64,000 nt of DNA, from contig JADHWH010000002.1 in the NCBI GenBank assembly GCA_016783555.1, forward strand, positions 2,037 through 66,036, in the 5' to 3' direction. The DNA is from Candidatus Omnitrophota bacterium. GTDB lineage: Bacteria; Omnitrophota; Gorgyraeia; JABMRJ01. How positions within the stretch are numbered: position 1 is the stretch's first letter; every line of letters begins with the position of its first letter. The notes beneath the pieces are model-generated. The model worked only from the letters and a program-made list of their open reading frames with translations. It did not search any database and was not told where the DNA came from. The position numbers were made by a program, and so were the translations under genes. Of the stretch, positions 14,713 to 60,789 are shown one piece after another.

Positions 14713-14810
14713 CCTGTCCCCAAAACACCTGTTCCCAAAACACCCTGTTCCCAAAACACCCTGTTCCCAAAACACCCTGTTCCCAAAACACCCCAAAACA
14801 CAAAAAAACC
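14713..14810. repeat. tandem direct repeat, about 16-bp unit (TGTTCCCAAAACACCC) x about 5 with degenerate flanks
   Basis: Directly visible: ctgtccccaaaacacc / tgttcccaaaacaccc x3 / tgttcccaaaacacc / ccaaaacac. Confidence 0.85.
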
Positions 14811-19936: not shown

Positions 19937-20461
19937 ATGAGAAAATCCGAAATCCGAAATCCGAAATCCGAAACAAATCCAAAATCGCAAATTTCAAATT
20001 ATGAAGGGTTGCAAGCAGACATCAGAAATTTAAGGACACCAAAAATAGACGTCTGGGAGAACAAATATCCCGAAAAGGAATACACGGTCAATCTAGAGAG
20101 TGCGGAGTTTACATGCATATGCCCGAAGACGGGGCTCCCGGATTTCGCGACTATAAAGTTAAAATACAGACCGGATAAGCGGTGCGTAGAGCTTAAGTCA
20201 TTTAAACTCTATATAATCTCTTATCGCGGCGTGGGTATATTCCACGAACACGCCGTTAATAAGATCTTGGACGATTTTGTCAAGGCATGCTCGCCCCGCT
20301 GGGCGCACATTGAGATGGTGTTTAACCCCAGAGGAGGCATAACGACTACAGTAGAAGCGGAGTATGCCAAGAGCGAAAAACTCAAAGCGCAAAGCGCAAA
20401 ACTAAAAGGTAAAACTAAAAATGAAAAAAATAAATACAAGAAAGATAAAACAAATAGTTAG
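19937..20461 (+). CDS. queF: NADPH-dependent 7-cyano-7-deazaguanine reductase (type I QueF) with repeat-encoded N-terminal and Lys-rich C-terminal tails
   Basis: FTCICPKTGLPDFA and ELKSFKLY motifs. The 5' end contains an AAATCCG x4 DNA repeat. Confidence 0.8.
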   Translation: MRKSEIRNPKSETNPKSQISNYEGLQADIRNLRTPKIDVWENKYPEKEYTVNLESAEFTCICPKTGLPDFATIKLKYRPDKRCVELKSFKLYIISYRGVGIFHEHAVNKILDDFVKACSPRWAHIEMVFNPRGGITTTVEAEYAKSEKLKAQSAKLKGKTKNEKNKYKKDKTNS

Positions 20462-24880: not shown

Positions 24881-25912
24881 ATGATTTCAATATATACTTT
24901 TAGAAAAGAGGTGCATGTGAGAATAGAGAGAAATATTAGATACTCGGTTTTGGCAGCAGTTTTTTTATCTTCTATCCTTTTACCTGTATTTACCGCAGAA
25001 GGAAAGGGATCGGAAAAAAAATCCGAAATAGAAGAGCAGGCGCTTTACAAACGGCAGAAGGATGCTCGCAATCTATACGATGTAAAGTTTCCCGAAAAAA
25101 AAGAAAAGTCAGATCTGGAAAAGCATCTTGAAACCAGGATCGCGGGATTGAGAGAGCTTTTTGAAGAAGAGAGGAAGGCCGAAAGGGAAGAGAGGAAGAG
25201 AAAGACGAGGGAGGCGGTAGAGGCCCGTAAGAAGGCGAAGAAGCAGTCGATCCCGGAGAAAAGAGCTCGCAGAGAAGAGGTACGCCGAAAAAGGAAAGAA
25301 TTATTACAGGAGAAGAGAGATAAGCTTAAAAAAGAGCTTGAGAGGCGGAAGCGAGAAAGGCAAGAAGCGCGGGAAGAGAAGATTAGTAAAGAGAAAGAGG
25401 CCAAGCTTAAAAAGAGGGCCGAAAGAAAGGCCCAGCTTAAAGAAGATAAAAAGAGATTGAGAGAAGAAAGGGAGAGAAAGAAGGCCGAGAAAAAGGCTAA
25501 GATAGAAGAGAAGCGGAAGAGATTGAAAGAAGAAAGAGAGAGGCGAAAGGCCGAGAGAAAAGCAAGGCTTGAAGAGAAGAAGAGGAAGAAAGAAGAAGAA
25601 AAGAAAAGACGAGAAGCAGAGAAAAGACCTGAGCCCGAAAAGAAAGAGATAAAAGAAGAACGAAAAGAGAGAGAAGAAGATAAGGCCGAGGAAGAGAGAG
25701 GGTTAGAAGAAGTTAAGAGAGAAGAGCAGGCTGATCTGAAAAAGATTGCCGAGGAAGAGATGGCCTATGCCATAAGGCATAGAGGTTCACACCGATTCAT
25801 TGACTTGCTGCTTGAAGAAGGAGATATCTTATTTAACGAAGGAAAATACGAAGAGGCAGCCAAGAGGTATTTTAAGGTCAACCGCGCCGTTGCCGGCGAA
25901 GTTGTCGAGTAA
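24881..25912 (+). CDS. secreted Lys/Glu/Arg-rich low-complexity (charged coiled-coil) protein with short C-terminal TPR-like segment
   Basis: Hydrophobic signal-like segment (VLAAVFLSSILLPVFTAEG), then about 250 aa of KE/R repeats. Start is uncertain: 24821, 24881 and GTG 24911 are all in frame. Confidence 0.45.
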   Translation: MISIYTFRKEVHVRIERNIRYSVLAAVFLSSILLPVFTAEGKGSEKKSEIEEQALYKRQKDARNLYDVKFPEKKEKSDLEKHLETRIAGLRELFEEERKAEREERKRKTREAVEARKKAKKQSIPEKRARREEVRRKRKELLQEKRDKLKKELERRKRERQEAREEKISKEKEAKLKKRAERKAQLKEDKKRLREERERKKAEKKAKIEEKRKRLKEERERRKAERKARLEEKKRKKEEEKKRREAEKRPEPEKKEIKEERKEREEDKAEEERGLEEVKREEQADLKKIAEEEMAYAIRHRGSHRFIDLLLEEGDILFNEGKYEEAAKRYFKVNRAVAGEVVE

Positions 25913-25975
25913 AAAATAGGGACAGGTCCATTTTTCCCGAGAGAGACATTGAAAAATGGACCTGTCCCTATTTTT
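25912..25975. terminator. bidirectional rho-independent terminator (24-bp perfect inverted repeat flanked by A- and T-runs)
   Basis: AAAAATAGGGACAGGTCCATTTTT-N16-AAAAATGGACCTGTCCCTATTTTT between the convergent KE-rich gene and tRNA-Arg. Confidence 0.7.
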
Positions 25976-26614: not shown

Positions 26615-26691
26615 GCGCCTGTAGCTCAGTTGGATAGAGCATCTGCCTTCTAAGCCGAGGGTCGCAGGTTCGAATCCTGCCAGGCGTACCA
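26615..26691 (+). tRNA. tRNA-Arg (anticodon TCT)
   Basis: GCGCCTGTAGCTCAGTTGGATAGAGC...anticodon loop CTTCTAA...GGTTCGAATCC...ACCA; one mismatch in the anticodon stem. Confidence 0.8.
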
Positions 26692-26794
26692 ATTCCGCCA
26701 AAGGCGGAAATGATCCTGAGCGAGTACTTGACATCGAAGATGTCAAGTACGAAGCGAAGGACCTTAAGATATTTCGCCGAAGGCGGAAATTTAC

Positions 26795-26872
26795 GGTGGG
26801 TGTAGCTCAGTTGGTCAGAGCACTTGACTGTGGCTCAAGTGGTCGGGAGTTCAAGTCTCCTCACCCACCCCA
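26795..26872 (+). tRNA. tRNA-His (anticodon GTG) with encoded G-1
   Basis: Extra 5' G pairing with discriminator C; anticodon loop CTGTGGC; CCA encoded. Confidence 0.85.
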
Positions 26873-45871: not shown

Positions 45872-45892
45872 TCCAACCTTAAGCAAAAGGGT

Positions 45893-46064
45893 AGAGGGGA
45901 CGTTTCACCTTGTTATTACTCCTTTATCCGTAAGCAGTTACGGTAGTAAGCGGTACACTTTTCGACAAAATGATTTAACCTGAAAAGATGTACCGGTTGA
46001 ATTTGTAACTTCTTACCATATAAGTAGTAATATAAGGGTGAAACGTCCCCTCTTTATTTTTTTG
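45893..46064 (+). terminator. long inverted repeat (17-bp perfect arms about 130 bp apart) followed by T-run
   Basis: AGAGGGGACGTTTCACC (45893..45909) pairs with GGTGAAACGTCCCCTCT (46037..46053), then TTTATTTTTTT. Contains nested hairpins. Confidence 0.4.
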
Positions 46065-46070
46065 TGGAAA

Positions 46071-48789: not shown

Positions 48790-49535
48790 AGAAAAATTTT
48801 TCAAGATACGCGCGATCTTACGATACTTATTCCACGGTTCAGGATCACTGCGCGGCCGGGCTGATTGCAAAGATTAAATCCAACGGCTTCAGAAAGATCC
48901 TGGATATAGGCTGCGGCACCGGTAACTACACAAGGCTATTAAAGGAGAGGTATCCTCAAGCAAGCATTAAGGCGGTAGATATATCAGAAGAGATGGTTGA
49001 TGTAGCCAGGGAGAAACTAGACGGCCAAAGAGTGGATTTTCTTGTGAGAGACGCCGAAGCGATAGACTTAGATGATGAGTTCGATCTTATAAGCTCCAAT
49101 GTAAGTTTTCAATGGTTTGAGGATTTAAAGGATCCCCTGTCAAGATACAGCGGTCTACTTAAAGAAAGCGGCATTATAGCCTTTTCTCAATTCGGCCCAA
49201 AGACATTCTATGAGCTTAATAGCTCTTTAAGGATACTTTTTGGTAAAGACGTCTCAATAAGCGCGTATAATTTTGTAGAGAAAGACGAGATAGAGACCCT
49301 GCTTAAGCGCCATTTTAAGATGGTTGAGGCAGCTGAAGAGATATACAGAGAGAGCCACAATTCATTAAGAGAGCTCTTAACGAAGATAAGGTATACAGGC
49401 ACAAGGGGGCGGGGATTAAATAACGGGAACCTCTGGACTCCAAAGGTTATCAATAATCTTGAAGATATCTACAGAGAGAGGTTTAAAGGCATTACGGCAA
49501 CATATCAGGTATTTTACTTAAAAGGTGTAAAATGA
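48771..49535 (+). CDS. bioC: malonyl-ACP O-methyltransferase
   Basis: SAM motif ILDIGCGTGNYTRLL; bio operon context. Confidence 0.8.
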   Translation: MDKEAIKKNFSRYARSYDTYSTVQDHCAAGLIAKIKSNGFRKILDIGCGTGNYTRLLKERYPQASIKAVDISEEMVDVAREKLDGQRVDFLVRDAEAIDLDDEFDLISSNVSFQWFEDLKDPLSRYSGLLKESGIIAFSQFGPKTFYELNSSLRILFGKDVSISAYNFVEKDEIETLLKRHFKMVEAAEEIYRESHNSLRELLTKIRYTGTRGRGLNNGNLWTPKVINNLEDIYRERFKGITATYQVFYLKGVK

Positions 49536-49536
49536 G

Positions 49537-49652
49537 CCCCGTTAGACCTCTAACAAAGGCTAAGAGGGGATAACATTCAGGATTTGTAGCCCAGGTTTAA
49601 ACCTGGGCTACAAATCCGGGAGGAAATACAATTGATAGGAGGTCTAACGGGG
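49537..49652 (+). promoter_or_regulatory. intercistronic palindromic element that sequesters the SD and GTG start of bioD
   Basis: CCCCGTTAGACCTC (49537..49550) is complementary to GAGGTCTAACGGGG (49639..49652, overlaps SD GGAGG and the GTG start); inner perfect 32-bp palindrome at 49583..49614. Confidence 0.5.
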
Positions 49653-50263
49653 TGAGAGGGATATTCGTTACGGGGACAGATACGGGTGTCGGCAAGACCG
49701 TGGTTACGGGATTATTGGCGCGGTATCTTTCTGACGGAGGATATAGCGTTATTACGCAGAAGTGGATAGAGACAGGCAGCAAAGGCTTTTCGAAAGATAT
49801 AGATATGCACCTTAAACTGATGGGAAAGAGAAGGAAGGATATAAAAGATTTTCTGCCTCACGTATCTCCTTATGTATTTAAGTTCGCCTCATCGCCGCAC
49901 CTCGCGGCGAAGCTTGAAAGAGAGAGGATTAATAAAGATAAGATTAAAAAGAGTTTTAGGGTTTTGCAAAAGAGACATGACTTTGTAATAGTAGAAGGGG
50001 TAGGAGGCGCGCTGGTTCCTTATAACGAGAAGAGATTGGTTATAGATATAGCAAAGGAGCTTAAATTGCCCGTCATAGTCGTTGCGGAAAATAGATTGGG
50101 CGCTATTAATCACACGCTGCTTACAATCGAGGCGATAAAAGCGAGAAAGATGAAAGTAGTAGGGGTAATATTCAATGATTGGCGGGGAAAGACCGATAGA
50201 AAAATCCTTAAGGATAATATACGCATAATAAAAAAATGGATAGCTGGATTAAAAAAGATCTAA
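49652..50263 (+). CDS. bioD: dethiobiotin synthetase
   Basis: P-loop GTDTGVGKT; GTG start. Confidence 0.85.
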   Translation: MRGIFVTGTDTGVGKTVVTGLLARYLSDGGYSVITQKWIETGSKGFSKDIDMHLKLMGKRRKDIKDFLPHVSPYVFKFASSPHLAAKLERERINKDKIKKSFRVLQKRHDFVIVEGVGGALVPYNEKRLVIDIAKELKLPVIVVAENRLGAINHTLLTIEAIKARKMKVVGVIFNDWRGKTDRKILKDNIRIIKKWIAGLKKI

Positions 50264-51582
50264 AGCATATATGGCATCCCTATACGCAGATGAAGGATTG
50301 CAAGATACTTCCTCCTATTCTTATAGAGAAAGCCAGAGGGCTTAAGCTCTATGATAATAAAGGCAGTTTCTATTACGACACAATCTCAAGCTGGTGGTGC
50401 AATGTCCACGGCCATAATCATCCCAGGATAAAGAATGCCATAAAAAGGCAGCTCGATTCTTTAGACCACGTATTATTTGCCGGATTTACGCACAAGCCGG
50501 CGATACTCCTGGCCGAGAGGCTCATCTCTATAACCCCGGGAAACCTTAAGAAGGTATTTTTTTCCGATAACGGTTCTACGGCGGTTGAGACCGCCCTCAA
50601 GATGTCATTTCAATATTGGCAGAATTCGGGCAGGGAAAAAAAGAAAAATTTCATCTCTTTGGATTATGGCTATCACGGCGATACTATAGCAGCTATGTCG
50701 GTAAGCGGCGTGGATCTATTTAACGAAATATTCGCGCCGTTATTTTTTAAATCTTATAAAATACCCTCTCCTTATTGCTATCGATGCCCGATGAAGAAGA
50801 AGAGGACCTTTTGCGATATAGAGTGCATAGGACCGTTAGAGAGGTTATTGCGAAGAAGGAATTCTGAAATCGCAGCTATAATTATAGAGCCGCTCGTTTT
50901 GGCGGCAGGCGGCATGATAGTATACCCTAAGGAATATTTAAAGAGAGCAGCGCATCTCGCAAGAAAATACAACGTCCACCTAATACTGGATGAAGTTGCT
51001 ACCGGCTTCGGCAGGACCGGCAAGATGTTCGCATGCGAACATGCAAAGGTCAAACCGGACTTTATGTGCCTTTCAAAAGGCATAACTGCAGGCTTTCTTC
51101 CGTTAGGGGCGACATTGACCACAGATGAGATATACGGCGCCTTTTATGATGATTATAAGAAGGGAAAGACTTTCTACCACGGCCACACTTATACGGCTAA
51201 TCCCATCTCATGCTCGGCGGCGCTGGCCAGCCTCGACGTCTTTAAAAGGGAAGATACCCTAAGGAAGGCGGAGGGGCTCATATCGATATTTCATAATAGG
51301 CTTGAGAGGTTTCGCGGCCTTGATATAGTGGGGGATGTAAGATGCATAGGCATGATAGGGGCGCTTGAGCTGGTTAGGGATAAAAAGGGCAAAAAAAAGT
51401 TCGGCATTAACGAGAGAATCGGATTGAGGATTTATAAGAAGGGATTAAGAGAGAGCCTTATACTGCGGCCGCTTGGGGATATTGTATATTTCTATCTTCC
51501 GTTCTCTATAACAAAAGACGAGATAGGTGTTATTGTAGATAAGACATTTGATATTATAAAAAACGAAAGAAGCGTGAGATAA
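50236..51582 (+). CDS. bioA: adenosylmethionine-8-amino-7-oxononanoate aminotransferase
   Basis: Class III aminotransferase; PLP lysine in DEVATGFGRTGK. Confidence 0.9.
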   Translation: MDSWIKKDLKHIWHPYTQMKDCKILPPILIEKARGLKLYDNKGSFYYDTISSWWCNVHGHNHPRIKNAIKRQLDSLDHVLFAGFTHKPAILLAERLISITPGNLKKVFFSDNGSTAVETALKMSFQYWQNSGREKKKNFISLDYGYHGDTIAAMSVSGVDLFNEIFAPLFFKSYKIPSPYCYRCPMKKKRTFCDIECIGPLERLLRRRNSEIAAIIIEPLVLAAGGMIVYPKEYLKRAAHLARKYNVHLILDEVATGFGRTGKMFACEHAKVKPDFMCLSKGITAGFLPLGATLTTDEIYGAFYDDYKKGKTFYHGHTYTANPISCSAALASLDVFKREDTLRKAEGLISIFHNRLERFRGLDIVGDVRCIGMIGALELVRDKKGKKKFGINERIGLRIYKKGLRESLILRPLGDIVYFYLPFSITKDEIGVIVDKTFDIIKNERSVR

Positions 51583-51669
51583 TAAAAGAAGCGTTTGCCA
51601 GATTGAGATTAACCTTGAGATATTTCGGCGCATAAGATATAATAATAAAACTAAAATCAGGAGCAAGAT

Positions 51670-51903
51670 ATGACGGTAGATTTAACACAGGTAAGGCCGG
51701 GAGAAAGCGGCATTGTAGCGGATATTCAAGGCGGCCACGGTATGACAGAGAGAGTCCAGGCCATGGGTGTAAGGCCGGGAAAGAGAATAACCAAGATCAG
51801 CTCGCATTTCTGGAGGGGGCCGCAGACCGTGCAGGTCGATAATACCCAAGTTGCCATAGGCTTTGGTATGGCGAGAAGGATTTTAATAGAAGTCGAGAGA
51901 TGA
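51670..51903 (+). CDS. feoA: ferrous iron transport protein A
   Basis: 77-aa SH3-like FeoA (LTQVRPGESGIVADI...RVQAMGVRPG). Confidence 0.8.
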   Translation: MTVDLTQVRPGESGIVADIQGGHGMTERVQAMGVRPGKRITKISSHFWRGPQTVQVDNTQVAIGFGMARRILIEVER

Positions 51904-51904
51904 A

Positions 51905-51952
51905 CCCCGTTAGACCTAATAAGAGGTCGACGGGGCGGGAGGTCTAACGGGG
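51905..51952 (+). promoter_or_regulatory. second copy of the SD/start-sequestering palindromic element, before feoB
   Basis: CCCCGTTAGACCT (51905..51917), imperfect partner GAGGTCGACGGGG (51923..51935), perfect partner GGAGGTCTAACGGGG (51938..51952) ending in the GTG start. Confidence 0.5.
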
Positions 51953-53670
51953 TGAAAGAGATAAATAAGATATTATTGATGGGTAATCCTAACGTGGGGA
52001 AGAGCGCCATATTCTCCAGGCTTACAGGCGCTAAGGTGGTGATCTCTAACTATCCCGGCACAACGGTGGAATTTACCCAGGGCCATGTGAAGATTGACGG
52101 CGCGAGGCCCATGATAATAGACGTTCCCGGGACTTATACATTGGAGCCAACCAGCAAGGCCGAAGAGGTAGCCGTCCAGATGTTAAAGGAGGGAGACTTC
52201 GTTATTAACATCGTCGATGCTACGAACCTCGAGAGAAATCTTTATCTTACATTACAGCTTATAGAGAAAGGTATTCCCCTCGTTGTGGCTTTAAATATGT
52301 GGGATGAGACGAAGCACCAGGGGATAGAGATAGATATTAAGAGGCTGGAAGAGAGATTGGGTGTGTCGATAGTCCCCACCTGCGGCCTTACGGGGGAAGG
52401 GATAAGAGAGCTTGTAGCCCGCATATCGGAAGCAAGGCCTTTAAAGAGACACCTCTTTACGGAGAGAAAGAAATGGGAGAGCATAGGAAGAATAGTTAAT
52501 GAGGTCCAGCGGCTTACCCACCACCACCATACATTCTTGCAGAGACTGGAGGAGTTAAGCATAAAACCTGTTACGGGGCTGCCTATAGCGGCGGGTGTTA
52601 TGTTCTGCGCGTTTTTAATTATCCGTTTTATAGGCGAAGGCTTAATAGGCTATCTATTTGAGCCTCTGTTTAATAATATATGGCTTCCAGTGATGACGAG
52701 ACTAAGCTTGATATTAGGCGGAGAGACATTTTTGCACCATATATTTATAGGCAAACTTATTAATGGCGGGATAGATTTCGGGCAGTCCTTCGGGCTTTTT
52801 ACCACAGGGTTATTTGTGCCTATAGCCATGGTCTTACCGTATCTATTCAGTTTCTATTTAGTATTGGGACTCCTGGAAGACTTCGGCTATCTGCCGCGCC
52901 TTGCCGTACTGCTCGACAATCTTATGCATCGAATGGGGCTTCACGGATATGCTATAATACCGCTCATCCTGGGATTGGGCTGCAATGTCCCTGGGGCCTT
53001 AGCCACCAGGTTATTGGAAGGAAAGAGGGAGAAGTTTATCGCGGCGACTTTGATGGCGGTCGCCGTTCCCTGTATGGCCCAGATTGCCATGATTGTAGGA
53101 TTGGTAGGCGAGAGGGGAGGAAGGTATCTAGCCATTGTATTCGGCACGCTTTTTTTGGTTTTAATCATAAAGGGGCTTATTTTAAATAGAGTCATGAAAG
53201 GCCCGAGTCCCGAGATACTGGTTGAGATCCCCCCGTATAGAATCCCTCAGCCTATTGCGGTTGTAAAAAAAGTCTGGATGCGCGTCTTTGGTTTCTTGAA
53301 AGAGGCCCTTCCTTACGTGCTTTTAGGCATACTCTTTGTTAATGTCCTCCATGTGCTAAAGATCATAGATTATCTCGCAAGACTATTCAGTCCGCTCGTA
53401 ACAAATGTGTGGGGGCTTCCAAAAGAGGCGATATCGGCGCTTATTATCGGGTTCTTGAGGAAGGATGTCGCTGTCGGAATGCTGGGGCCGCTTGACCTTA
53501 CTACCAAACAGCTTGTCATAGGCTCTACGGTCCTGGCCATCTACTTTCCCTGCATTGCCACTTTTGCTGTATTGGTGCGCGAGTTGGGCATAAGGGATAT
53601 GTTGAAATCAGCCGCTATCATGATTGGCGTGGCGCTATTGGTAGGAGGATTGCTTAATATAATATTGTAA
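51952..53670 (+). CDS. feoB: ferrous iron transporter B (GTPase + membrane domain)
   Basis: G1 GNPNVGKS, G2/G3 TVE/DVPG, G4 NMWD; polytopic C-terminal domain. Confidence 0.85.
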   Translation: MKEINKILLMGNPNVGKSAIFSRLTGAKVVISNYPGTTVEFTQGHVKIDGARPMIIDVPGTYTLEPTSKAEEVAVQMLKEGDFVINIVDATNLERNLYLTLQLIEKGIPLVVALNMWDETKHQGIEIDIKRLEERLGVSIVPTCGLTGEGIRELVARISEARPLKRHLFTERKKWESIGRIVNEVQRLTHHHHTFLQRLEELSIKPVTGLPIAAGVMFCAFLIIRFIGEGLIGYLFEPLFNNIWLPVMTRLSLILGGETFLHHIFIGKLINGGIDFGQSFGLFTTGLFVPIAMVLPYLFSFYLVLGLLEDFGYLPRLAVLLDNLMHRMGLHGYAIIPLILGLGCNVPGALATRLLEGKREKFIAATLMAVAVPCMAQIAMIVGLVGERGGRYLAIVFGTLFLVLIIKGLILNRVMKGPSPEILVEIPPYRIPQPIAVVKKVWMRVFGFLKEALPYVLLGILFVNVLHVLKIIDYLARLFSPLVTNVWGLPKEAISALIIGFLRKDVAVGMLGPLDLTTKQLVIGSTVLAIYFPCIATFAVLVRELGIRDMLKSAAIMIGVALLVGGLLNIIL

Positions 53671-56323: not shown

Positions 56324-56426
56324 TACTATTTACCTCCGGTTACAATAACCTACTAATCTTATTAGATTAATAGGAATTATATATCAATGGGTAAGGTTTG
56401 TCAAGAATTTTTTTATAAAATTTTAC

Positions 56427-56474
56427 TTTAAAGATCCTTCGCCCTATAGGCCTCAGGATCAAGTCAAATTTGCT
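56427..56474. promoter_or_regulatory. 48-bp conserved box with near-perfect palindrome (GATCCTTCGCCCTATAGGSCTCAGGATC), copy 1
   Basis: 47/48 identical to 57151..57198. Sits upstream of a TTGACA -35 and a further 11-bp-arm palindrome, in the divergent region between Rrf2/cysK and the 56556 ORF. Confidence 0.45.
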
Positions 56475-56555
56475 GATGCAAATTTGACTTGACAAATATA
56501 GCTAATACAGCTAATTTATTATAACTGCCACAAAGACATAGATGAGGTCTAGGAT

Positions 56556-57113: not shown

Positions 57114-57150
57114 GCGCTGGCGGGGGTTGCCTCCGCTTAAATTTTTAAAT

Positions 57151-57198
57151 AAAATTTTACTTTAAAGATCCTTCGCCCTATAGGGCTCAGGATCAAGT
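57151..57198. promoter_or_regulatory. 48-bp conserved palindromic box, copy 2
   Basis: Near-identical to copy 1; followed by palindrome AGTTAATT-N11-AATTAACT and promoter TTGACA-17-TATCAT. Confidence 0.45.
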
Positions 57199-57282
57199 TA
57201 ATTGTTTAAATAAAAATTAACTTGACATAATGATACTAATATGGTATCATTTAAAAGGAAGCAAAAAAGAGGGAGGTAAACA

Positions 57283-60586: not shown

Positions 60587-60612
60587 AAGTAATGCGGTGA
60601 AAAGGAATGATT

Positions 60613-60749
60613 AAATTCGAAATCCGAATATCGAAATCCGAAACAATATCGAATTACCGAAATTCGAATGTTCCAAACCAAGTGTTTTGGTCATTTGAAA
60701 ATTCGGATTTCGTATTTGTTTCGAATTTCGGATTTCGTGCTTCGAATTT
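60613..60749. repeat. about 137-bp imperfect palindromic element built from CGAAATCCGAA / TTCGGATTTCG motifs
   Basis: Left half carries two direct CGAAATCCGAA units, right half two inverted units, centre CCAAACCAAGTGTTTTGG. The same motif occurs as a tandem repeat at 19942..19985. Confidence 0.5.
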
Positions 60750-60789
60750 AACAAGCAGATAAACATATTATACGAGGGAGGTGCGAATC

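Follow-up and report, generated by a model that had tools for sequence, protein, structure and literature searches.

Hairpin modules at the bioD and feoB start codons of an Omnitrophota bacterium are probably reduced copies of a small mobile element that inserts at translation starts

The window analysed here, 64,000 nucleotides of contig JADHWH010000002.1 from a Candidatus Omnitrophota bacterium (GenBank assembly GCA_016783555.1, positions 2,037 to 66,036 of the forward strand), carries two short hairpin modules, one between bioC and bioD and one between feoA and feoB. By Pfam, the open reading frames (ORFs) around them are bioB, bioF, a gene for a BioH-like hydrolase, bioC, bioD, bioA, feoA and feoB; the identities of BioD and FeoB are confirmed, and the N-termini of both proteins agree with those of homologues. 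An exact match search of the window places the box CCCCGTTAGACC(T), in its 12-nt form CCCCGTTAGACC, at 49537-49548 and 51905-51916 on the forward strand, and the exact complement of CCCCGTTAGACC at 49641-49652 and 51941-51952, inside the string GGAGGTCTAACGGGGTGA at the starts of bioD and feoB. By simple arithmetic, both strands of 64 kb should yield about 0.008 chance matches to an exact 12-mer; four are seen. A first-pass annotation of the sequence had reported a box behind the stop codon of each upstream gene (bioC, feoA) and its complement at the start of each downstream gene (bioD, feoB), and the coordinates bear this out; the string shared by the two starts, given there as 20 nt, measures 18 nt. 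Each left arm begins 1 nt past a stop codon (bioC TGA, 49533-49535; feoA TGA, 51901-51903). The right arms contain GGAGG (49638-49642 and 51938-51942), and their last base is the G of the GTG start codon of BioD (49652-49654) and FeoB (51952-51954), respectively. The arms match perfectly over 14/14 nt in copy 1 (bioC/bioD) and 13/13 nt in copy 2 (feoA/feoB; Table 1).

The interiors of the two copies differ. Copy 1 encloses a perfect palindrome, previously described as 32 bp long, which extends to 38 bp (49580-49617). This palindrome is single-copy in the window and is found in none of 117 loci compared, the same-strain contigs L001 and L002 excepted (L numbers designate loci throughout); the contig breaks of three Logan assemblies fall exactly inside it. 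The layout of copy 2, namely arm, loop, imperfect arm, spacer and arm, recurs in L035, L048, L081 (twice) and L098. A search across the window for further copies of either interior, as a possible sign of captured filler DNA, returned none.

Direct 4-bp repeats flank both modules, TGAG/TGAG at bioC/bioD and TGAA/TGAA at feoA/feoB. The bioC/bioD junction runs from AAAATGAG through CCCC...GGGG into TGAGAGG, and the feoA/feoB junction from GAGATGAA through CCCC...GGGG into TGAAAGA. Deleting the module and one repeat in silico restores an ATGA overlap, with the upstream stop lying over the downstream ATG. For bioC/bioD this deletion yields GTAAAATGAGAGGGATATTC; the relative L010, whose BioD is 79% identical, has GGCGTAAAATGAGAGGGATATTC, which differs by one substitution in the flank. 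The 4-nt ATGA overlap is present at bioC/bioD in five relative lineages (L010, L011, L013-15, L215/216 and L217), and the ATGA junction at feoA/feoB is empty in two relatives (L011 and L215); all same-strain contigs carry the insertion. Conservation in orthologous intergenic regions, which the first-pass annotation had suggested examining, is not observed: the module is absent there and the junction is empty in the relatives examined. Given these empty orthologous sites, the parsimonious reading is one gain per junction in the lineage of the window. As the comparison with relatives shows, the bioC/bioD and feoA/feoB modules are insertions into ancestral ATGA stop/start overlaps. As a separate observation on this locus, BioD (49652-50263) comprises 203 residues and its gene overlaps bioA by 28 nt, both here and in L010, while most Omnitrophota homologues have about 230 residues.

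The same ends are found in other genomes. A DNA scan of genome contigs, one genome per species, with the 15-mer GGAGGTCTAACGGGG as query, which fixes the right arm and GGAGG and leaves the flanks unconstrained, matched at least 102 stretches. Among those listed, the left arm lies 48-310 nt upstream in exact form in 34 cases and with 1-2 mismatches in a further 18. More than 50 elements among the matches listed thus share the ends, at unrelated genes in several phyla and nearly all at [A/G]TGA[A/G] start codons. The hosts belong to Omnitrophota, Planctomycetota (Planctomycetia, Pirellulales and Sedimentisphaerales), groundwater 'Deltaproteobacteria', Nitrospirota/Thermodesulfovibrionia, Clostridia and others, and some metagenome-assembled genomes (MAGs) hold 2-5 copies on separate contigs. 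Among the elements listed, the target duplication is TGAA (n=37) or TGAG (n=10), preceded by A in 75% and by G in 22%; TGGG (after CA) and TGTA (after CG), which are less common, likewise stand behind the first base of a start codon. A purine- and G-rich native Shine-Dalgarno region lies at -16 to -13, 8-11 nt upstream of the preceding A or G. In essentially every listed case a long ORF (46 to 856 codons) follows from the remade start, composed of the G of the element and TG, and in about 19 listed elements a long upstream ORF ends on the duplicated TGA, which is also the arrangement in the window. The arm bearing GGAGG faces the host gene in a ratio of about 50:2 among the matches listed (exceptions, L026 and L067). 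Since the flanks are ordered although absent from the query, the target appears to be the translation start [A/G]TG-A-[A/G] and not an intergenic palindrome site. The genes downstream of the elements are functionally unrelated.

Compared all against all, the interiors match only between orthologous loci or in ORF remnants, and no common MITE (miniature inverted-repeat transposable element) core emerges. The short copies in L095, L040, L102 and L051 are plain internal deletions of the ORF described below. As most interiors are unrelated, the short copies are not classical amplified MITEs and would instead have formed many times over, either through in-place deletion or because copying was incomplete. 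Viral contigs gave four isolated matches to the 15-mer, without a left arm, which are probably due to chance. Tandem or nested elements occur in L071, L027, L149, L136 (protein P0136) and L153, where a left arm begins a few nucleotides after a right arm, and arm-derived peptides stand inside proteins; such arrangements would follow if elements can also insert at the remade GTGA[A/G] start. In a further pair of orthologous loci from two groundwater 'Deltaproteobacteria' MAGs, the element of L082 is 85 nt long, and that of L017 contains an extra insert of about 190 nt, across which a 93-codon upstream ORF (uORF) still remains open to the right-arm TGA.

The full-length form of the element is a gene. 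In L019, L052 and L077, copies of 268 nt consist of one ORF that runs from the host ATG to a TGA overlapping the new GTG, in the order host ATG, left arm (encoding M-[N/S]-PVRP), GIY-YIG nuclease, right arm (encoding GGLTG) and TGA over the remade GTG, with the GGAGG of the right arm 9 nt upstream of that GTG. The product has 91 residues (MNPVRP-WFYTYVL...FYTG...QHN...REKYLK...RLKGGLTG) and matches only the GIY-YIG family in Pfam (PF01541, E 7e-16). A protein search returned 284 relatives, and among the 120 listed, 81 are exactly 91 residues long; in these 120 the N-terminus is M[N/S]PVRP, with P3, V4, R5 and P6 invariant and residue 7 hypervariable, and about 100 end in GGLTG (69 in LKGGLTG). 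Start and stop of the ORF coincide to the nucleotide with the ends of the element in dozens of independent loci; L135-L144 are further coding elements with the same ends. The nuclease genes are wedged between host genes and overlap the neighbour at either end by 4 nt, as in MNT-GIY-HEPN, where the neighbours form a toxin-antitoxin pair, and as on each flank of a DUF1156 methyltransferase gene. In L126-L128 we also noticed a putative defence or restriction operon in the order helicase, GIY-YIG, DUF1156 methyltransferase, GIY-YIG. A protein-based scan of JGI metagenomes confirmed at least 451 of 600 candidate stretches.

Sister subfamilies follow the same plan at a length of 268-290 bp, with covarying ends around the common core CCCGTTA/TAACGGG; in one example, TCCCGTTAGAGA...TCTCTAACGGGA followed by TGAA, the terminal A remakes an ATG and GGAGG is missing. 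In subfamily 'C' (metagenome loci L180, L186, L199, L208, L175, L212, L188, L158 and L163) the left arm lies 23-28 nt upstream of an ATG of its own. The closest matches of the protein in sequence and fold are UPF0213 BH0048 and the nuclease domain of the structure-specific SLX1, with I-TevI and UvrC further off. Searches with PADLOC and PHROGs gave no match, and plasmid and phage collections yielded distant GIY-YIG relatives only, at most 42% identical.

The AlphaFold model of the nuclease (pLDDT 87) displays a single domain with a confident core at residues 9-86, and both termini lie loosely outside it. The third positions of the GGLTG codons (GGA GGT CTA ACG GGG) are frozen, with an entropy of 0-0.75 bits, compared with 1.5-1.9 bits, near saturation, at the third positions of invariant Gly, Thr, Ser and Pro codons in the interior. 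Moreover, the arms covary between subfamilies (GTTAGAC/GTCTAAC, GTTAGAG/CTCTAAC, GTTACAA/TTGTAAC and CTGTTAGAG/CTCTAACAG). Frozen synonymous sites, termini outside the core and paired changes together indicate that the ends are constrained as nucleic acid and not as protein. This constraint fits either recognition of identical ends or a stem in single-stranded DNA or RNA, and the data do not separate the two.

Folding predictions place both hairpins well above shuffled controls in stability, with -63.4 kcal/mol (z -7.9) for the bioC/bioD copy and -27.8 kcal/mol (z -5.3) for the feo copy. In the predicted ensembles of all 47 short copies a helix between left and right arm closes the structure, and the median paired probability of the Shine-Dalgarno sequence is 0.94. 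The third, imperfect arm of the feo copy, AGGTCGACGGGG (51924-51935), had been taken in the first pass to allow alternative pairings; the arm is real, but the ensemble pairs left with right arm (P ~1.0), and pairing of left with third arm is favoured in 0/47 copies. The right arm furthermore provides stop codons in two of three frames: a TGA lying over the GTG and, 4 nt ahead of this start codon, a TAA. Among 41 degenerate copies, 25 have a uORF that is open from the ancestral start to a right-arm stop, against 8.5 expected from interior shuffles (0/2000 shuffles reach 25); for copies of at least 90 nt the figures are 14/26 and 2.4. Of nine copies in the third frame, none runs on into the host ORF, and lengths without a right-arm stop are depleted (10/54 elements). 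The feo copy is a model example, with a uORF (51900-51947) that ends at the TAA 4 nt before the GTG. In the bioC/bioD copy, whose length modulo 3 is 2, a 13-codon uORF crosses only the left arm and stops 78 nt before the GTG.

On the basis of these results, we consider it very likely that the two modules belong to a small mobile family that inserts at start codons, as copies with internal deletions and no nuclease. On this reading, an intact element of about 268 bp consists of a single ORF and inserts at [A/G]TG-A-[A/G], duplicating TGA[A/G]. The host ribosome-binding site and ATG are then taken over for the ORF of the element, and the right arm donates a new Shine-Dalgarno sequence and start codon, the latter made from the last G of the element and the TG of the duplication and overlapped by the TGA stop of the ORF. 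The window copies would have lost the nuclease ORF later or may never have been copied in full. In agreement, the idea of a REP-like mobile repeat supplying a ribosome-binding site of its own, one of several offered in the first-pass annotation, proves essentially right in view of the duplications, the empty sites, the more than 50 copies and the nuclease-encoding forms. How the element moves is the weakest part of this explanation. The most likely driver of mobility is the action of the GIY-YIG nuclease on the arm hairpin, in line with what has been published for the related Ssn proteins: the two arms would pair in single-stranded DNA, the nuclease would cut at the base of the stem beside TGAR, and host replication or repair would complete the move, possibly by template switching on 4-nt microhomology, which would explain why the duplication is nearly always TGAA or TGAG. 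As the element lacks a start codon of its own, the nuclease would be expressed only after landing on a start codon, and this could alone enforce the start-codon bias. More tentatively, and with odds that we put somewhat below even, the 268-bp form may be an autonomous, near-harmless start-site transposable element, the smallest known, and GIY-YIG a new class of prokaryotic transposase. The 91-residue Slx1/Ssn-like nuclease would then be its sole product, would recognise the stem that the element ends form in single-stranded DNA and would direct the element to translation starts, while the inverted repeats, as a hairpin in the mRNA, would leave translation of the host gene dependent on the original initiation signal.

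The hairpins may also serve translation. The left arm, 1 nt past the upstream stop, would pair with the right arm and hide the Shine-Dalgarno sequence and GTG. A terminating ribosome unwinds several nucleotides downstream of its A site, and one that terminates at bioC or feoA could melt the left arm and free the new ribosome-binding site; alternatively, the ribosome may restart at the retained ATG, read the MSPVRP.../MNPVRP... uORF and melt the left arm on its way. Such a relay would keep bioD and feoB coupled to the translation of bioC and feoA, as before the insertion. On this reading, translation of the host genes is probably still coupled to upstream translation. Occlusion of the Shine-Dalgarno sequence and start codon, as postulated earlier, thus holds as a predicted structure; we interpret it as preserving coupling and not as sensing a signal.

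Several observations weigh against these proposals. The window contains no GIY-YIG gene or ORF, and counts from the 15-mer scan are a sample and not full frequencies. Most interiors of short copies are related neither to the nuclease ORF nor to one another; such copies may stem from in-place decay, from copying that stopped short or from mobilisation in trans. In L018, L058, L094 and other loci the left arm is gone and the right arm kept, from which it follows that the hairpin is not indispensable to the host. In subfamily 'C', the flanks TTTA, CCCC...GGGG and TGAA look inverted rather than duplicated, a misfit to the model of a 4-bp duplication. We infer the part of GIY-YIG in mobility from co-location only; such nucleases work by hydrolysis, strand transfer is not known among their activities, and DDE transposases are the enzymes with which a 4-bp duplication is more typically associated. 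With regard to coupling, the relay is less direct at bioC/bioD, where the 38-bp palindrome lies between the uORF stop and the GTG, and some of the open uORFs may be owed to a recent origin, in frame, from the ORF instead of to selection.

The view that the hairpins are cis-regulatory RNA switches kept by the host for bioD and feoB (riboswitch, attenuator or thermometer), as had also been considered in the first pass, has in its favour the stable predicted structures over the Shine-Dalgarno sequence and start codon, and the feo third arm could in principle compete. However, a scan of 49400-52100 against Rfam at E up to 10 returned no family and only noise, conservation is confined to the 13-15-nt ends while the interiors vary in sequence and length (48-310 nt), and the short copies offer neither the alternative pairing nor competing structures of similar stability. 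Moreover, none of the relatives examined has the module at the orthologous junctions, it precedes genes of unrelated function across several phyla, and the full-length versions encode a nuclease; we regard such a switch as extremely improbable. A less drastic departure accepts the insertions as described and takes the hairpins as neutral scars, with bioD and feoB initiating at GGAGG and GTG and the pairing having no role in translation. Old copies that lose the left arm and keep the right (L018, L058, L094; L044 versus L102), a subfamily, B, without any GGAGG, and the bioC/bioD uORF ending far from the GTG speak for this. On the other hand, by textbook knowledge of initiation a perfect GC-rich helix of 13-14 bp (-27.8 kcal/mol or stronger) should block free binding of the 30S subunit, the left arm lies 1 nt past the stop, where a terminating ribosome would unwind it, and uORFs that read through to right-arm stops are enriched about threefold, with lengths lacking such a stop depleted (10/54). 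We judge neutral scars unlikely, yet deserving of more weight than any of the other alternatives.

The modules could also be ordinary MITEs of an unseen DDE transposon, for example an IS1380- or piggyBac-like one, with the GIY-YIG ORF as cargo or as a non-moving user of the ends. Terminal inverted repeats with a 4-bp duplication are the hallmark of DDE elements, those of the IS1380/piggyBac type have a 4-bp duplication and CC(C) ends, short copies without an ORF exist, and GIY-YIG enzymes are not known to act as transposases. Nevertheless, no DDE transposase lies between these inverted repeats (CCCCGTTAGACC...GGTCTAACGGGG) among the matches listed, in which the 268-nt GIY-YIG ORF, matching the element ends to the nucleotide, is the sole coding form. 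For 19 partnerless right arms out of more than 100 matches, whole loci of 0.7-8 kb were checked and no left arm bounding a longer element was found, and the orientation of about 50:2, although the arms are symmetric for 13 nt, would require strong selection under a mechanism blind to orientation. This reading therefore seems improbable to us. Finally, the element might be ancestral at both junctions and have been excised precisely in every relative. Precise excision across a hairpin-bounded 4-bp duplication is mechanistically conceivable, but it would have to occur independently in five lineages at bioC/bioD and two at feoA/feoB, versus one gain at each, and we give loss hardly any credence; gain or loss, the element is mobile either way. 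Integron attC sites were tried as a candidate and rejected: GTTAGAC and GTCTAAC are present, but the GTTRRRY motif comes first, opposite to the attC order 5'-RYYYAAC ... GTTRRRY-3' at the 3' end of cassettes, and the arms stand at gene starts.

The closest published relative of the family that we propose is the Ssn/NTS system of 2025, the one group of such stand-alone nucleases with experimental work behind it. Ssn is a 94-residue GIY-YIG protein that binds hairpin repeats flanking its own gene and cuts single-stranded DNA just 5' of the hairpin, whose stem may come from two separate strands; its authors liken the NTS-ssnA-NTS layout to an insertion sequence (Chenal et al. 2025, Nat Commun, PMC11893778). 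Common to both are a single-domain GIY-YIG protein of about 91-94 residues, a gene bracketed by inverted repeats and many additional genomic copies without the ORF, and a stem from two strands would fit arms 268 nt apart. In contrast, the SRM pattern HGTCWY...RNCYNB was found neither in the window nor in the two elements, and the repeats described here form the opening and closing codons of the ORF and pair mutually, whereas Ssn has a local hairpin on each side. Start codons, stop codons and duplications are not mentioned in PMC11893778. A 2006 survey of the superfamily regarded stand-alone prokaryotic Slx1-like proteins as vertically inherited and placed selfish members in another branch (PMC1564403).

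Bacterial MITEs and insertion sequences resemble the elements in their 13-15-bp inverted repeats, 4-bp duplication, empty orthologous sites and ORF-less forms beside a coding form. Insertion sequences are typically at least 700 bp long, however, whereas the elements here measure about 268 bp, encode GIY-YIG and not a DDE, HUH, DEDD, serine or tyrosine enzyme, possess no start codon of their own and target translation starts, and their short copies do not form a homogeneous family. The seg genes of T4-like phages (PMC2988022) are likewise selfish GIY-YIG genes between host genes that use host expression signals. The protein described here is different in that it is single-domain, belongs to the Slx1/UPF0213-like and not to the I-TevI/UvrC branch, and is found with the same ends and duplications at dozens of unrelated genes. 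Seg proteins have a separate DNA-binding domain and spread to the same locus via double-strand-break repair, without inverted repeats or duplication. With REP/BIME-RAYT (IS200/IS605-like) the family shares short palindromic extragenic repeats, probably handled as single-stranded hairpins by a small nuclease, domesticated or selfish; it differs in arms that start with CCCC and lack a GTAG/CGTC head, in a GIY-YIG instead of an HUH enzyme, in the duplication and in a position at start codons instead of downstream of genes. In coupling hairpins opened by ribosomes (MS2 coat-replicase, ATGA-overlap operons), the Shine-Dalgarno sequence and start codon of the downstream gene are also hidden by a strand in or near the upstream frame and are exposed solely by a ribosome that passes or terminates at that point; in the present case such a device would be delivered ready-made by a mobile element that replaces the ATGA overlap. 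Rickettsia palindromic elements, too, are palindromic mobile repeats that avoid counter-selection through their compatibility with host-gene translation, but they lie in frame inside ORFs and are translated within the host protein, whereas the elements here enter at the start codon and reconstruct initiation at a separate site. In the open-access literature, searched for start codon, duplication, MITE, transposon and host phyla, neither the motif nor a GIY-YIG element of this kind is described. Three features are apparently undescribed: the element inserts at start codons, it takes over the ribosome-binding site of the host gene, and it donates a new Shine-Dalgarno sequence together with a start codon.

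Table 1. Features of the two element copies in the window
Feature	Coordinates	Strand	Remarks
Left junction, copy 1	49532..49536	+	Ancestral bioD ATG (49532-49534) overlapping bioC stop TGA (49533-49535); left TGAG duplicate 49533-49536
Element copy 1, 116 nt, nuclease ORF lost	49537..49652	+	14-nt perfect inverted repeats and TGAG duplication; architecture as in >50 elements elsewhere
Left arm, copy 1, CCCCGTTAGACCTC	49537..49550	+	PVRP-coding in full-length elements
Vestigial uORF, MSPVRPLTKAKRG then stop	49532..49573	+	From ancestral ATG through left arm; N-terminus as in family, M[N/S]PVRP
Inner 38-bp perfect palindrome, half-sites GGATTTGTAGCCCAGGTTT and AAACCTGGGCTACAAATCC, nested in copy 1	49580..49617	+	Sequence
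Right arm, copy 1, with Shine-Dalgarno, GGAGGTCTAACGGGG	49638..49652	+	GGLTG-coding in full-length elements; last G is first base of bioD GTG
Remade bioD start GTG (49652-49654) and right TGAG duplicate (49653-49656)	49652..49656	+	Sequence, ORF, homologues
Left junction, copy 2	51900..51904	+	Ancestral feoB ATG (51900-51902) overlapping feoA stop TGA (51901-51903); left TGAA duplicate 51901-51904
Element copy 2, 48 nt, minimal form	51905..51952	+	Left arm 51905-51917, imperfect third arm 51924-51935, GGAGG 51938-51942, right arm 51940-51952
Relay uORF, MNPVRPNKRSTGREV then stop	51900..51947	+	From ancestral ATG across whole hairpin; TAA (51945-51947) in right arm, 4 nt before feoB GTG
Remade feoB start GTG (51952-51954) and right TGAA duplicate (51953-51956)	51952..51956	+	Sequence, ORF, homologues

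Other repeats were noticed in the window. Between a Glu_synthase-like ORF and bioB, 45883-46065 (+) forms a near-perfect hairpin of about 180 nt (-86.3 kcal/mol, z -9.1) that ends in a U-run, in a spacer of 212 nt compared with 77 nt in L010; a further foldback insertion, or else a terminator of unusual size, is the probable explanation. About five tandem copies of the 16-nt unit TCCCAAAACACCCTGT occupy 14717-14796. Simple repeats of the AAATCCGAAAT type, direct and inverted, occur 40 kb apart at 19937-19999 and 60607-60751, the second locus with a 68-nt inverted repeat. At 25912-25975 and 26620-26829, a 25-nt perfect inverted repeat adjoins two tRNA-like direct repeats, and a 79-nt direct repeat, 85% identical, is found at 56406-56484 and 57140-57218, 734 nt apart.

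The family explains a recurrent 15-nt motif that is shared across phyla at gene starts of uncultivated bacteria, where gene callers meet GTG starts and odd hairpins. Combined, the ends and the nuclease might be turned into a compact tool, either to insert DNA at start codons or to cut single-stranded DNA. If GIY-YIG drives mobility, prokaryotic transposons would gain a new class, defined by its enzyme and far smaller than any other; if true, this would also assign a role to part of the large family of stand-alone Slx1/UPF0213/Ssn-like nucleases, most of them uncharacterised (17,010 clusters at 50% identity, E 1e-3). For the host, the proposed exchange of an ATGA overlap for a self-contained coupling device offers a route by which a selfish element may reside inside operons without polar or null effects.

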